Source of the DNA: Prorocentrum cordatum
Taxonomy: Eukaryota
NCBI GenBank assembly: GCA_963575745.1
Contig: CAUYUJ010000331.1
Span: forward strand, 62,001 to 115,272
Length of the DNA: 53,272 nucleotides
Reading direction: 5' to 3'
Of the stretch, positions 37,401 through 43,900 are shown piece by piece. The notes below the pieces were generated by a model. That model searched no databases. It was not told the origin of the DNA and saw only the letters and a program-made list of their open reading frames with translations. The position numbers were made by a program, and so were the translations under genes. Each line of letters begins with the position of its first letter. The first letter of the stretch is position 1.

Positions 37401-40400
37401 GAGTTACTAGCTCTGGGGCGCGCCGGAATTACTCTTAGCTTCCAGCAATACCTTGCTAAGGAAAGCTCTACGAGGTAGTTATCACTTGTAAGCGTCCAAA
37501 ACCCGGATGGCAAAGCCAAGCACGAAACGCCGCACGGGAATCTCTGCCAGGCCGCCTGAGACGATGCGCGGCAGGCTGGAAACCTCGCAGGAGACGCTTC
37601 CAGAGGGCGCCGTTTACGATGCGAAGCTCTGCCGAAGCGCTTCCCGCACCCTAGAGGCACGCGTATTGGGAAACGCCAGGAAGCCACGCTCCCGGACCCG
37701 ATGCCGGTTCCGGCAACCTGCTGCGGGGATCGTGGACCGGCGGAGATGGGCGTCTGCTCCTCACCACCCACCGCCAGCTTCTTTTCTGAAACCCTGAGCT
37801 CTCGAAAGGTTCTATCCGGGAACTTTCTCCTTTCTGGCCGGGTCGACCAACTAGCTCCACCCCGCGCCGGAATTCCTCTAGCTCATCGATGCCGAAGAGC
37901 TCTACGAGGTACGATGCGCGGGACGCTGGAAACCTCGCAGGGGACGCTTGCAGGGGCGCCGTTTACGATGCGTTGGGCCCTGCAAAGCGCACAAGGAAGA
38001 TCTGCCTAGGAGCCTGGAAGAACTGGCGCCGGCGGTGAACCGTCAACCTGGTCATCGCCGGGACCCTCGTAGAGCTCCTTGCATCCGTGAGAGAGCTCAG
38101 AATCAAAGCGAGAGCTTCTGGGAGCTTTTCTACCAAAACTTGAAGTTGAGATTTTTTCGGAGTCAACGTGAAGTCGATTGCTCCAAGTAAACTGATACTG
38201 AAAATGGCTCTAGAGGGCTGAGCTGCTCAGAGAACAAATTTTATATATCAATGCTCGGAGTAAAAATCTGCTTTCTCAAAATGAATTGTCACATATCTTT
38301 GAAATCTTAGCAAAACCGACCAAAAGTTACCACTTTGTCCTTTCTGGCCGGGTCGGCCAATGGCGCCAGCGGTAAACCGTCAACCTGGTCACCGCCGGGA
38401 ACCTCGTAGAGCTCATTTCACGCGTAAGAGTGCTGAGTGTCGAAAGAGAGAGCTTCTGGAGGCATTTCTCCAAAAAGAGAAAAAATGTTTTTTTTCGTAT
38501 CGAAATAAAGATGGTTCCGCCAAGTGTTTCGATAGTAAAAGTGCACCTACAGAGCTCATACTAAGACAGAGAGGCCCTCATAGTCGTTTACAGGTGCGAA
38601 AAATATGCTTTCTCAAAATGAATTGTCAAATATCTTCAAATATTGCAAAAACCACCAAAAATGGGCGCCGGCGGTAAACCGTCAACCTTTGTTACCGCCG
38701 GGGGACTCGTAGAGACAACATATAATGTCAAAAAAATTACACAGAAAACTATTTTTTCGGCGATGACGAAAAATACGAATAGTTTTGCAAACCTAGCTCG
38801 AGTATGAGACCGTTCAGACCTCTGCATGCGACCGGCAGACGCGTCTATTGTCTCTGAATCGATTCCTGTGATTACAAGCCTAACAGCCCCCCTACAGCCC
38901 GAGTAAAGTGCAGGAAACCGACAGCACCTCTCAGGATGACTCGAACAATACGGATAGTTTCGCGACGAAGATAGTTCGAGCAGAAGACAGGACAGCAGAG
39001 TCGGAGCTCGGGATTTCGAAAGGCTGGGCGCCTGGTGTCTTCTGAATCGATTCCAGCGATTACCAGCCATGCAGCCCCCCACAGCCCGAGTTGAGCGCAG
39101 AGAACCGACAGCATCTCTCAAGATGACTCGAACAATACGAATAGTTTCGCGATTCTAGATCGGGCAGCAGATCGAGTTCAGAGCTCTGGATTCAACAGAC
39201 AACGGCCACTGATGATTCTGAATCAGATTCTGTACGTATCAGCTCTGTAGCTGTCCTGTAGCTCGAGATAAGTACAGAAAACCGAGAGTGTCTGTCAAGA
39301 CGACTCGAATAATACGAATAGGTTTGCGGACCTAGCTCGGCTAGCAGACCGAGTTCAGACCTCTGGATTCAACAGGCAAACGCGCCTGATGATTCTGAGT
39401 GCGATAGCTGTGCTTACCAGCTCTGTAGCTGCCCTACAGCTCGAGTTAAGTACAAAATACCGACAACGCGTATCAAAATGACTCAAACGATAGTAATATT
39501 CACCCGATCGAGCTGAGATCGAGATGGCGAGCGGGAATAAGATCGAATATCACGGGACAAAATACTAGAGCTATAACGAATTGTCAAATGCCGAGAACAT
39601 AATTTTCAACCGAGCAAAAGTTGTCAAAAGTTCCGTCGAGATTTTTCGAGCCAACTGGGCGCCGGCGGTAAACCGTCAACCTTTCTTACCGCCGGGGGAC
39701 TCGTAGAGCTTCCTGAAAAATATATAGTGTGGAAAAAACTGCAAAGGACGACTAGTTTTTCAGCCCAAGCGATTTCAGACCTCTCAAGATTGTTCTCACC
39801 CAAAAAACAAACAGTTTTGCAACCCAGTTCGTGTATCGAACCCAGGCGGGCGCGTCTGATATCTGCAAATCCACTCGTGTGATTCCCAGCCCTGCAGCTC
39901 CCCTACAGCCCGAGTTTAGTGTAGAAAACCAACAGTATCGACTCGAATAATAGAATAGTTGTTTCGGACCTAGTTCGAGCAGCAGACCGAATTTCGAGCT
40001 CTGGAATCGACCAACAGACGCGCCTGATGTGTGCAAATCGATATCTGTGACCCGTAGCACTGTAGCCCTCCCCCAGCAGGAGTTGAGTGCAGAAACTTGA
40101 GAGCACTTCTCAAGATGATTCGAACAATACGAATAGTTTTGCCAACCTAGCTCGAGCAGCAGGCCGAGTTCAGAGCTCTCGGTTCAATAGACACACGCGA
40201 CTGATCATTCCCCATCGATGTCTGTGACAATGAGCCCTGTAGCTGCCCTACAGCTCGAGTTAAGTACAGAAAACCGAGAGCGTCTGTCAAGATGACTCGA
40301 ATAATACGAATAAGTTTGCGGACCTAGCTCGGCTAGTAGACCGAGTTCAGACCTCTGGATTTGACAGACGAACGCGTCTGATAATTCTGAATGCGATAGG

Positions 40401-40750
40401 CGTGCTTACCAGCCCTGTAGCTGCCCTACAGCTCGAGTGAAGTACAGAAAACCGAGAGCGTCTGTCAAGACGACTCGAATAATACGAATAGGTTTACGGA
40501 CCTAGCTCGGCTAGCAGACCGAGTTCAGACCTCTGGATTCAACAGGCGAACGCGCCTGATAATTCTGAATGCGATAGGCGTGCTCACCAGCTCTGTAGCT
40601 GCCCTACAGCTCGAGTTAAGAACAAAATACCGACAACGCGTATCAAGATGACTCGAAACGGCCGATCCCGCCGGGACGCTTTTTGGCAGTAAAAGGTACC
40701 CGATCGAGCTGAGATCAAGATGGCGAGCGGGAATAAGATCGAATATCACG
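34372..40750. repeat. ~3.46-kb higher-order duplication (~34372-37300 vs ~37830-40750)
   Basis: Near-identical sequence and junctions. ORF artefacts repeat at offset 3455 (34493/37948, 34905/38360) and 3466 (36286/39752). Confidence 0.85.
37485..37822 (-). mobile_element. Complete 338-bp U element with its own short inverted repeat
   Basis: Flanks GTTATCA | CTTTCTCCTTTCTGGCCGGG rejoin to the S consensus GTTATCACTTTGTCCTTTCTGGCCGGG. CCCGGAT (37502-37508) pairs with ATCCGGG (37814-37820). Confidence 0.75.
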
Positions 40751-40920
40751 GGAAAAATACTAGAGCTCTAACGAATGGTGAATTTCGAGAACAAAATTTT
40801 CAACCGACCAAAAGTCAGCAAAAGGTCCGTCGAGAGTTTTCTTGCCAACTAGCTCTCCAGCGCTCCGGAATTACTCTTAAGCTTCCAGCAATAACTTGCT
40901 AAGGGAAGCTCTACGAGTTA
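39655..40920 (-). mobile_element. Complete 1266-bp L element
   Basis: Hairpin arms 39662-39671 and 39686-39695. Perfect 15-bp inverted repeat ACTCGTAGAGCTTCC (39699-39713) / GGAAGCTCTACGAGT (40904-40918). Internal 178-bp units. Confidence 0.88.
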
Positions 40921-43900
40921 CTGGGCGCCGGCGGTAAACCGTCAACCTTTCTTACCGCCGGGGGACTCGTAGAGCTTCCTGACAGTATATACTGTGGAAA
41001 AAAAAAACTCCAAAGAACGACTAGTTTTGCAGCCCAAGCGATTTCAGACCTCTGAGGATGACTCTAACCAAAAAACAAACAGTTTCGCGACCCAGTTCGA
41101 GCATCGAACCGAGTTCAGACTCTTAATGCGACAGGCGGGCGCGTCTAACGTCTGTGAATCCACTTATGTGATTCCCAGCTCTGCAGCTCCCCTACAGCCC
41201 GAGTTCAGTGCAGAAAACCGACAGTATCGATTCGAATAATAGAATAGTTTTGCGGACGTAGTTCGAGCAGCAGACCGAGTTCTGAGCTGTGGACTCTCCC
41301 AACAGACGCGCCTGATGTGTGCAAATCGATATCTGTGACCCGCAACACTGTAATCCTCCCCCAGCACGAGTTGAGTGCAGAACATTGAGAGCACGTCTCA
41401 AGATGATTCGAACAATACGAATAGTTTCGCAAACCTAGCTCGGGCAGCAGGCCGAGTTCAGAGCTTTCGGTTCAATAGACGAACGCGACTGATCATTTCC
41501 CATCGATGTCTGTGATAATGAGCTCTGTAGCTGCCCTATAGCTCGAGTTAAGTACAGCAAAACGAGAGCGTCTGTCAAGACGACGAATAATACGAATAGG
41601 TTTGCGAACCTAGCTCGGCTAACAGACCGAGTTCAGACTCTCGATTCAACAGGCAAGTGTGCCTGATAATTCTAAATGCGATAGGTGTGCTTAACAGCTC
41701 TGTAGCTGCCCTACAGCTCGAGTGAAGTACAGAAAACCGAGAGCGTCTGTCAAGACGACTCGAATAATACGAATAGGTTTACGGACCTAGCTCGGCTAGC
41801 AGACCGAGTTCAGACCTCTGGATTAAACAGACGAACGCGCCTGATAATTCTGAATGCGATAGGCGTGCTCACCAGCTCTGTAGCTGCCGTACAGCTCGAG
41901 TTAAGAACAATATACCGACAACGCGTATCAAGATGACTCGAAACGGCCGATCCCGCCGGACGCTTTTTGGCAGTAAAAGGTACCCGATCGAGCTGAGATC
42001 AAGATGGCGAGCGGGAATAAGATCGAATATCACGGGAAAAAATACTAGAGCTCTAACGAATGGTCAAATTTCGAGAACAAAATTTTCAACCGACCAAAAG
42101 TCAGCAAAACGTCCGTCGAGATTTTTCTTGCCAACTAGCTCTCCAGCGCTCCGGAATTACTCTTAAGCTTCCAGCAATAACTGGGCGCCGGCGGTAAACC
42201 GTCAACCTTGGTTACCGCCGGGGGACTCGTAGAGCTTCCTAACTCGACTTAAGTTGAGAAAACAGAGAGCACTTACTAATAATCAAACTTATAGTGAATA
42301 GTTTTTTACCTTTCAATGCGAGAGACGGACGCGTCTGATGTCTGCGAATCGACTCCTGTCATTACCAGCCCTGCAGCCCCCCTACAGCCCGAGTTAAGTG
42401 CAGAAAACCGACAGCACCTCTCAGGATGACTCCGACAATAGGAATAGGTTCGCGAACCTAGTTCGGGCAGCAGACAGAGTTCAGAGCTCTGTATTCGACA
42501 GGCGGACGCGCTTGATGTCTTCAAATCGATTTCAGTGATTACCAGCCATGCAGCCCCCCTACAGCCCGAGTTAAGTTCAGATGACCGACAGCATCTCGCA
42601 AGCGACTCGAACAATACGAATAGTTTCGCGATTCTAGATCGGGCAGCAGACCGAGTTCAGAGCTCTGGATTCGAAAGAGAATCGCGATTGATGATTCTCA
42701 ATTCGTGCCTGTAACTATCAGCTCTGTAGCTGTCCTACAGCTCGAGTTAAGTGCAGAAAACCGAGAGTGTCTGTTAAGATTACTCGAATAATACGAACAG
42801 GTTTGCGGACCTAGCTCGGCTAGCAGACCGAGTTCAGACCTCTGGGTTGGACAGACGAACGCGCCTGATCATTCTGCATGCATTAGCTGTGCTTACCAGC
42901 TCTGTAGCTGCTCTAGAGCTCGAGTTATGTTCGGAAAACCGTCAGCGCATATCAAGATGACTCAAAACGGCAGATCCCGCCACAGTGCTTTTTGATAGTA
43001 ATATTCACCCGATCGAGCTGAGTCAAGATGGCGAGCGGGAATAAGATCGAATATCACGGGAAAAAATACTAGAGCTCTAACGAATGGTCAAATTTCGAGA
43101 ACAAAATTTTCAAACGAGCAAAAGTTGTCAAAAGTTCTGTCGAGATTTTTCGAGCCAACTAGCTGTGGGGCGCGCCAGAATTACTCTTAGCTTCCAGCAA
43201 TAACTGGCGCCGACGGTGAGGCGTCAACCTGGTCACCGCCGGGAACCTCGTAGAGCTCATTTCACGCGAAAGAGTGCTCGGAGTCGAAAGAGAGAGCTTC
43301 TGGAAGCATTTCTCGAAAAAGAGAAAAATTGATTTTTTTTCGTGTCGACATGAAGATGGTTGCGCCAAGTCTTTTGATAGTAAACGTACGCCTACAGAGC
43401 TCATACTAAGACGGAGAGGCCCTTATAGTCGTTTACAGGTGCGAAAACTCTGGTTTCTCAAAATGAATTGTCAAATATTTTTCAAAAAATCGCAAAAGCA
43501 CCCAAAAGTTGCCACATTGTCCGCCTCGGCCGGGTGGGCCAACTGGGCGCCGGCGGTAAGCCGTCAACCTTTCTTACCGCCGGGGGACTCGTAGAGCTTC
43601 CTGACAATATATAACGTGGGAAAAAATTTCAGAGAACGACTAGTTTTTCAGCCCAAGCGATTATAGACCTCTCAAGATGACTCTAACAAAACAAACGAAC
43701 AGTTTTCCAATCGAGCTCGAGTATGAAACCGAGTTCAGACCTCTGAATGCGACAGGCGGGCGTGTCGGATGTCTGCGGATCGATTCCTAGGATTACCAGC
43801 TCTGCAGCCCCCCATACAACTTAAGTTAAGTGCAGAAAACCGAGAGTACCTCTCAGGATGACTCGAATAATACAACAGTTTCGCGGATCTCGTTCGAGCA

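Follow-up and report, generated by a model that had tools for sequence, protein, structure and literature searches.

Non-autonomous elements with Helitron2/Helentron-like ends and their nested insertion in a satellite-like block of Prorocentrum cordatum

A 53,272-nucleotide stretch of the Prorocentrum cordatum genome (contig CAUYUJ010000331.1 of assembly GCA_963575745.1, positions 62,001 to 115,272; hereafter the window, with window positions written as w) carries many repeats that share hairpin-bearing ends, which raises the question of what kind of mobile element they represent and how they came to be packed together. The original prediction, which was made from the sequence alone, had placed one such repeat at w39655 to 40975 and described a non-autonomous family with Helitron2/Helentron-like ends. 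All elements are read here on the minus strand, and two families were distinguished, the longer L and its shorter sister family S. The precise mutual insertion of L and S built a 27-kb satellite-like block, and the two are likely to be related non-autonomous families of the Helitron2/Helentron (HLE2) structural type, similar to the HINE/DINE-1 elements.

Architecture of the L and S elements

Direct reading of the sequence showed that the flagged region contains one complete, protein-less L element of 1,266 bp, running from w40920 to w39655, while the bases w40921 to 40975 that had been included in the original prediction are part of the 3′ module of an upstream copy and lie outside the element. 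Its 5′ end is TAACTCGTAGAGCTTCC at w40920, that is, T-A-A-CTCGTAGAGCTTCC, which is followed by about 330 bp of unique sequence and then by about five tandem units of 177–178 bp. Tandem Repeats Finder (TRF) placed 3.1 copies with a period of 178 at w40110–40657, and BLAST added unit matches down to w39892. The 3′ end reads GGAAGCTCTACGAGT-CCCC-CGGCGGTAAG, the loop, TTACCGCCGG-CGCCCAG and then T. The S element has the same plan, and part of the 5′ region is common to both families at 60–67% identity (BLAST). The features of the flagged L element, its upstream neighbor, and the S element used as reference are as follows:

w39655–40920, minus strand: flagged full-length L element, from the 5′ T to the 3′ ...CGCCCAG, with bounds set by junctions with differing neighbors
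w40904–40918, minus strand: 5′ subterminal inverted repeat ACTCGTAGAGCTTCC, element positions 3–17, complementary at 15 of 15 positions to the 3′ repeat of the same copy
w40873–40918, minus strand: 5′ hairpin, predicted from pairing of the 5′ repeat with the local repeat GGAAGCTTAAGAG
w39892–40657, minus strand: central array of about five 177–178-bp tandem units (TRF and BLAST)
w39699–39713, minus strand: 3′ subterminal inverted repeat GGAAGCTCTACGAGT (sequence reading and repeat comparison)
w39662–39695, minus strand: 3′ hairpin with a 10-bp stem, CCGGCGGTAA (w39695–39686) and TTACCGCCGG (w39671–39662), starting 4 nt after the 3′ repeat, and a 14-nt loop holding GGTTGACGG (fold and pair counts)
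w39655–39661, minus strand: 3′ tail CGCCCAG, with w39655 as the last element base and T as the next base
w40921–40979, minus strand: 3′ module belonging to the L copy upstream, which meets the flagged copy head to tail (CCCAG|TAACTCG)
w34062–34456, minus strand: reference S element of 395 bp, with TACCTCGTAGAGCTC on the 5′ side, GAGCTCTACGAGG on the 3′ side, the stem CCGGCGGTGA/TCACCGCCGG and the tail CGCCAG

The L copies were about 1.1–1.5 kb long and the S copies about 0.4 kb. The internal 177–178-bp units of L ranged from about three copies up to an array of about 19 (TRF), and S had none. Both ends were found many times over. The 5′ motif CTCGTAGAGCT, with at most one mismatch, occurred 60 times in the window against 1.5 expected, a count that none of 100 shuffled sequences reached, and the loop core ACCGTCAACC occurred 37 times against 2.4 expected. 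A total of 36 3′ modules were counted, with 33 on the minus strand. In 31 of the 36 the tail ended in AG followed by T; the T was required by the search pattern, so that only this proportion is informative. One of the other five ended in CCCAG followed by C, and four had worn ends. The next two bases were TT at 23 of the 31 clean 3′ ends. For the 5′ side, 27 rows were listed, of which w1908 and w52003 were dropped (w52003 is a 3′ repeat in reverse), leaving 25 ends. Position 1 was T in all 25, position 2 was A in 18 and G in seven, and position 3 was C in 15, A in eight and T in two. The ends are exact, T-R-M-CTCGTAGAGCT at the 5′ side and (C)CCAG at the 3′ side, and the 25 5′ ends and 31 clean 3′ ends had flanks that were unrelated or differed from each other.

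A separate 351-bp tandem array was found at w28574–29778 on the minus strand. Since every unit of this array holds an S-variant 5′ end preceded by ACTTCTAG, it represents a transposon end that was amplified as part of a satellite unit.

The subterminal repeats were compared in 17 listed elements whose ends were assigned from the nesting described below; 16 gave a repeat, and one had no recognizable 3′ repeat. The inverted repeat is 15 nt long in L and 13–14 nt in S. Among the seven listed L copies, it was perfect in four and had one mismatch in two, while the seventh, L_d, was entered one base off. Element position 3 forms an A:T pair in L where S has C:G, and the inner edge of the repeat is AGCTTCC/GGAAGCT in L versus AGCTC/GAGCT in S. 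The 3′ repeat is set about 45 nt inside the element end, and the 10-bp stem follows 4 nt past it and 6–7 nt before the end. When 33 of the 36 modules were aligned (the other three being truncated in the loop), the stem had standard pairs in 98.3% of 290 cells, whereas controls with slid partners were paired in 23–61%. One of the ten stem pairs was compensatory, with A-T in 17 modules, G-C in ten, G-T in one and another combination in one. The co-variation between L and S is thus real, yet each pairing accounts for only about one substitution event, the stem for about one and the repeat for one or two.

Positions 3–48 of L were predicted to fold into a 5′ hairpin (80-nt piece, −15.0 kcal/mol, z −3.13), and the 61-nt piece gave −12.6 kcal/mol with z −3.67 under DNA folding. 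The DNA fold also placed an inner hairpin, AGCAA-GTTA-TTGCT, inside the L 5′ hairpin, with its loop carrying GCAAG^TTAT (^ marks the insertion point), which is one of the insertion hot spots discussed below. A 5′ hairpin was predicted in all five 5′ ends that were folded, namely L, S, an S variant and two metagenome subfamilies, and the loops were unrelated. The z values were −1.4 to −3.1 in four of the five, and the L007 subfamily, at +0.07, was no better than shuffles.

On these points the original prediction was borne out: the minus-strand ends it had described (a 5′ T-R-N, a 3′ hairpin and C(G/T)CC(C)AG followed by T) were found where it had placed them, the loop core is conserved, and both pairings do co-vary between the families, with the small number of events given above.

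Nested insertions and target choice

The order of the copies was parsed from junction sequences and from a BLAST comparison of the window with L and S. The clearest nested arrangements are as follows:

w50556–52469, minus strand: three-level nest, with S positions 1–62, L positions 1–54, a full S copy (S′), L from position 55 to its end, and S from position 63 to its end (BLAST and junctions)
w40921–44766, minus strand: stack in mirror order, with L 1–26, L 1–26, S 1–61, a full L, S from 62 to its end, L from 27 to its end, and L from 27 to its end
w36189–37477, minus strand: L inserted in an L2 variant at GAGCTAG^TTGG (BLAST and junctions), with L2 1–71 at w37477–37407, the inserted L at w37406–36189 and the L2 remainder from w36188 on

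The three-level nest itself splits an outer L between its positions 98 and 99, and at w32400–30568 an L copy sits within S. In eight nested events both flanks were contiguous in the uninterrupted host sequence, so that the nested copies serve as built-in empty sites by which the ends and the absence of a duplication could be fixed without a second genome. The host sites were G|TTGG in four events, G|TTAT in two, T|TTTG in one and A|TTCC in one, the last with a worn 3′ end. Each filled site reads host-left, T...(C)CAG, TT-host-right. No target-site duplication (TSD) was seen in any of the eight events beyond one ambiguous T, which can be assigned to the element start, to the element end or to a 1-bp duplication. 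The target was N^TT in all eight events; it would be T^T only if the element is taken to end in ...CAGT, and the sequence allows either register. The A|TTCC event is that of S′ at w51958–52357 (minus strand), the sole one of the eight without a clean AG end, in which the 3′ hairpin region is rearranged and the worn end reads …CCGGCGC A|TTCC.

Mirror-order stacks of 5′ pieces and 5′-truncated remainders are what would be expected from Russian-doll insertion. The block is also rich in tandem structures, with a 3.45-kb segmental duplication and arrays of 177 bp and 351 bp, as would suit a complex satellite that owes its higher-order structure to unequal crossing-over and gene conversion, with no transposition at all. 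Such an origin is very unlikely, since the break points are exact to the base and, whatever the context, fall at the same two ends, the 5′ pieces and their remainders pair up in mirror order, and the ends are met in unrelated flanks both in the window and on 10 metagenome contigs. The segmental duplication (w34.5–36.4 kb versus w38.0–39.8 kb) has its borders inside L copies and probably arose by unequal exchange between elements; it makes several junctions non-independent.

Target choice was therefore assessed on 16 independent 3′ junctions inside L or S, which remained after removal of four copies from this duplication. All 16 lay in host orientation, and 15 fell at host positions 23–99, with the remaining one at L position 188. 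GCTAG^TTGG (S position 63 and the homologous L2 position 76) was used by six of the 16 junctions and GCAAG^TTAT (L position 27) by three. Same-strand TT sites number 113 in L and 48 in S, and opposite-strand ones 67 and 31; the first 100 nt hold only nine in L and six in S. Since TT sites are so abundant on both strands and beyond the first 100 nt, the biases in orientation and position are far from random. About eleven further junctions ran into sequence that is neither L nor S, and four more were exact head-to-tail contacts (w40921, 32798, 32401 and 5253). On the 5′ side, 15 of 25 flanks ended in AG, like the 3′ end of the element itself, and the base upstream was G in 19 and A in two of the 27 listed 5′ ends.

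This strong specificity for orientation and site, the resemblance of the targets to the element's own 3′ end (AG at −2/−1), the head-to-tail contacts and the lack of a TSD could also come from a double-stranded circle integrated by a site-specific tyrosine or serine recombinase in a Crypton-like manner, with the junction CCCAG|T-A-A recombining with targets of the GCTAG|TT type. We regard this as improbable. The shared core would comprise just 1–3 bases (AG^T), with G, A, T or C as the host base before the T, and no recombinase ORF was found in the scan of the window described below. An asymmetric repeat combined with a stem-loop that lies about 8 nt from the 3′ end is an HLE2 signature; to our knowledge, an asymmetric repeat with a stem-loop near the 3′ end is not a described feature of Cryptons.

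It is conceivable, though doubtful, that the HLE2-like families home into their own copies, with a transposase that selects targets by structure on the same strand as the donor. The nick would be made at an AG^TT exposed in or next to the small 5′-end hairpins of a resident copy, so that the element's own left end would act as a safe harbor and directed self-nesting would produce satellite-like, possibly centromere-like arrays. The idea that the main hot spot, GCTAG^TTGG, is a degenerate (“pseudo”) 3′ end was dropped, as the local alignment score between the 5′ region and the 3′ module was matched by 216 of 2,000 shuffles for S and 175 of 2,000 for L.

The families are not confined to the window. 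The 3′-module pattern was found on 10 metagenome contigs of marine and other origin (1.4–6.1 kb), which carried other subfamilies in other flanks and included stacked 5′ pieces like those in the window; one subfamily had a third version of the inverted repeat, TAACTCGTAGAGCTTTT/AAAAGCTCTACGAGTTA. The same pattern gave no matches in the prokaryotic genomes scanned, and a looser hairpin pattern gave none in the viral contigs scanned. Parts of the stretch were present in 20 of 24 listed public runs. In Logan contigs of three DNA-type runs (X1, X2 and X10) the family was extremely abundant, with 94,615, 23,044 and 816 pieces, and the element's 3′ end plus T, or w40920, was joined to several L positions, including TAA^TTCC and CCT^TTTG. 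As these data are contigs, they show the junctions as sequence and are not evidence of circles; circle junctions look the same in them as genomic head-to-tail junctions. In a metatranscriptome contig the L 3′ end runs into S position 63, and contigs of an RNA library (X17) cover parts of the element, which attests to the presence of the sequence and is not evidence of transcripts. As a separate observation, one 3′ module (L008:25–73) lies at the extreme edge of a contig with a GC content of 0.38 that otherwise carries HMGL-like and DUF6321 ORFs; the contig may be a chimeric assembly, or else this copy resides in a genome of another kind.

Search for a mobilizing enzyme and other features of the window

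Stop-to-stop open reading frames (ORFs) of at least 80 aa (219 in the window) were scanned against Pfam at E values up to 0.01, a scan limited to unspliced frames of that length. Apart from three low-complexity matches, the scan yielded only RVT_1 (E 4.9e-6, which is under the gathering score). The RVT_1 match belongs to a reverse transcriptase (RT) ORF that lies between S ends at w15650–9365. An RT between the ends had been named in the original prediction as a sign against it, and this ORF would seem to be just that; it was ruled out as an autonomous partner, since it is part of a long interspersed nuclear element (LINE) that entered the hairpin loop and is flanked by a 10-bp duplication:

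w9395–15275, minus strand: LINE-like RT element of 5,881 bp outside the L and S families, splitting the 3′ hairpin loop of an S copy, with ACCAGGTTGA on both sides (w15276–15285 and w9385–9394) and an RVT_1 match (E 4.9e-6)

This element has ORFs of 465 and 1316 aa with one stop between them, and its RVT_1 match is weak. A second, divergent LINE relative was observed at w390–2164 on the plus strand, with its 5′ part beyond the window edge. Its ORF (w390–1628) shares 25% identity over about 350–390 aligned residues with the C-terminal third of the first LINE (E 2e-29), and the relative itself terminates in an A-run that lies directly before the right half of a plus-strand hairpin, at the same loop position. 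Both RT elements are LINE-like insertions into the hairpin. The conserved hairpin doubles as a LINE landing pad, so that one small structure is read by two unrelated mobile machineries.

Other features of the window were noted besides the L and S copies. An isolated 265-nt fragment of eukaryotic large-subunit (LSU) rRNA (w17173–17437, plus strand; model positions 675–954 of 3401, 261 bits) is located at the edge of a 9-kb GC-rich block (w17300–26300, 60–70% GC). This block contains (CA)n and tandem arrays of 22, 49, 53 and 63 bp, such as 17.9 copies of 49 bp at w23823–24701, and has long overlapping ORFs on both strands with no Pfam match. The dinoflagellate spliced-leader motif had no match anywhere in the window when up to three mismatches were allowed, a result that weighs neither for nor against a dinoflagellate source.

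Classification and probable mobilization

Inverted repeats of 12–16 nt, T^T insertion and a stem-loop that follows the right repeat define the HLE2 type (PMC11417382). The repeat lengths of L and S fall within this range, the 10-bp stem follows the right repeat, and no TSD was seen; judged from the sequence, the structural features of HLE2 are present, with the target reading N^TT unless the register is shifted. The one-T ambiguity of assignment is discussed likewise for FoHeli1/2 (PMC5148889).

The closest likeness is to HINE/DINE-1, the non-autonomous Helentron-associated elements of mites, mosquitoes and Drosophila, which are described with 13-bp subterminal inverted repeats (subTIRs), the 5′ one of which has a further inverted repeat nested within it, with a stem-loop at the 3′ side and with a TT target (PMC4067079), as well as an unmodified target and central repeats (PMC4067079; Thomas et al. 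2014). L and S share subTIRs of about 13 nt, the left arm of the 5′ hairpin within the 5′ subTIR (from predicted folds, of which that of L007 was no better than shuffles), the 3′ stem-loop, the TT preference and the unmodified target, as well as a very high copy number and, in L, central tandem repeats that make up as much as half of the element. They differ from HINE/DINE-1 in having no terminal T-run, with a single 5′ T and a 3′ AG instead; in a pre-insertion host base that is mostly G; in their unrelated sequence; and in insertion that is strongly directed into the 5′ hairpin region of other members.

With Helitron2 of Chlamydomonas and Fusarium (FoHeli1/2), which has a hairpin at both termini, they share the asymmetric repeat with its 3′ arm set back, the hairpins at both ends, the lack of a TSD and insertion 5′ of a T. 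They are distinguished from it by the target AG^TT, as opposed to TNAT^ (FoHeli1/2) or TTTT^ (Helitron2), and by the lack of a RepHel-bearing copy among the L and S elements seen (PMC5148889). In the dinoflagellate Symbiodinium microadriaticum, Heringer and Kuhn (2021, PMC8788227) reported a Helitron2-like RepHel element that branches near the Helitron2/Helentron split, which shows that the Helitron2 type occurs in dinoflagellates. Among the matches listed for the literature on Helitrons and dinoflagellates, no title described non-autonomous families of this kind.

Several other assignments were rejected. Canonical Helitron1 resembles L and S in its 3′ hairpin, which sits some 10 nt from the end, in leaving no TSD and in that its three cut sites all lie 5′ of a T, but L and S lack the 5′ TC and 3′ CTRR (they have T-R-M, with A or G and then mostly C or A after the T, and CCAG instead), carry an inverted repeat, and are preceded mostly by G rather than by the A of its A^T target. 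A terminal inverted repeat (DDE) transposon or a miniature inverted-repeat element, with repeats that reach both ends and a TSD of fixed length, does not fit a 3′ repeat about 45 nt inside the end and the absence of a TSD. For short or long interspersed elements or retrozymes, which would have a TSD, an A-rich or simple 3′ tail and a tRNA/5S/7SL head or a ribozyme, no tRNA and no Rfam family were found in the elements and there was again no TSD; the sole Rfam match of the window was the LSU fragment.

Mobilization was probably carried out by a RepHel protein (an HUH nuclease with a Pif1-like helicase) encoded elsewhere. This enzyme would nick the motif-bearing strand 5′ of the first T, peel the strand off as far as the 3′ hairpin and cut 7–8 nt beyond it at AG^T. 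The freed strand would then be joined into a target nick that likewise lies 5′ of a T, which would account for most 5′ flanks ending in AG. The terminal hairpins and repeats would serve as recognition signals, and for this reason their pairing would be kept by compensatory change.

Several observations weigh against the HLE2 assignment and this mechanism. No RepHel, HUH or Pif1 match was found among the 219 window ORFs, no RepHel in 46 of 67 ORFs of at least 100 aa on the 10 metagenome contigs (the 21 omitted ORFs lie on L005 and L006, whose element locus is that of L004), and no transposase-encoding autonomous copy bearing L or S ends was seen in the window or on these contigs. With no transposase gene and an orientation that is conventional, the HLE2 layout and its “HLE2-reverse” counterpart are indistinguishable. 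The insertion point is preceded by G or some other non-T base unless the element is read as ...CCCAGT, and the second flanking base was not T at eight of the 31 clean ends. The co-variation comes from a small number of events (a single stem pair and, in each family, one to two positions of the inverted repeat), and the 3′ modules fold only modestly better than shuffles (z −1.5 to −2.1).

The absence of a helicase remnant from the scans of the window ORFs would equally suit another Rep-type transposase without a fused helicase, Replitron-like or of the IS200/IS605/IS91 kind, that works like a Helitron but is not one. Rep transposons are described as using hairpins, inserting in one orientation and sometimes leaving no TSD (PMC10288648). 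Replitrons, however, have short direct terminal repeats according to the same source, and those of L and S are inverted, for which reason membership in the Replitrons was rejected. As the ends of L and S also fit the HLE2 layout point by point, we give a transposase of this wider kind only a small chance.

Feature by feature, then, the analysis supports what had been proposed from the sequence, namely a non-autonomous family with Helitron2/Helentron-type ends, no TSD and central tandem repeats, whose autonomous partner does not lie in the window among the ORFs scanned. The further proposal, HUH mobilization, is probable and remains an inference, as no RepHel was found among the window ORFs or among the ORFs scanned on the 10 metagenome contigs.

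L and S form a new family of an already known kind and leave the classes of elements unchanged. They extend the HINE/DINE-1 body plan to a protist genome, and they illustrate to the base how mutual insertion of Helitron2-type non-autonomous elements, in one orientation and at a handful of sites, can give rise to a satellite-like block. If the tentative view that they home into their own copies is true, a eukaryotic Rep transposon would be choosing its targets by recognizing hairpins, much as in the single-stranded DNA hairpin logic of IS200/IS605.

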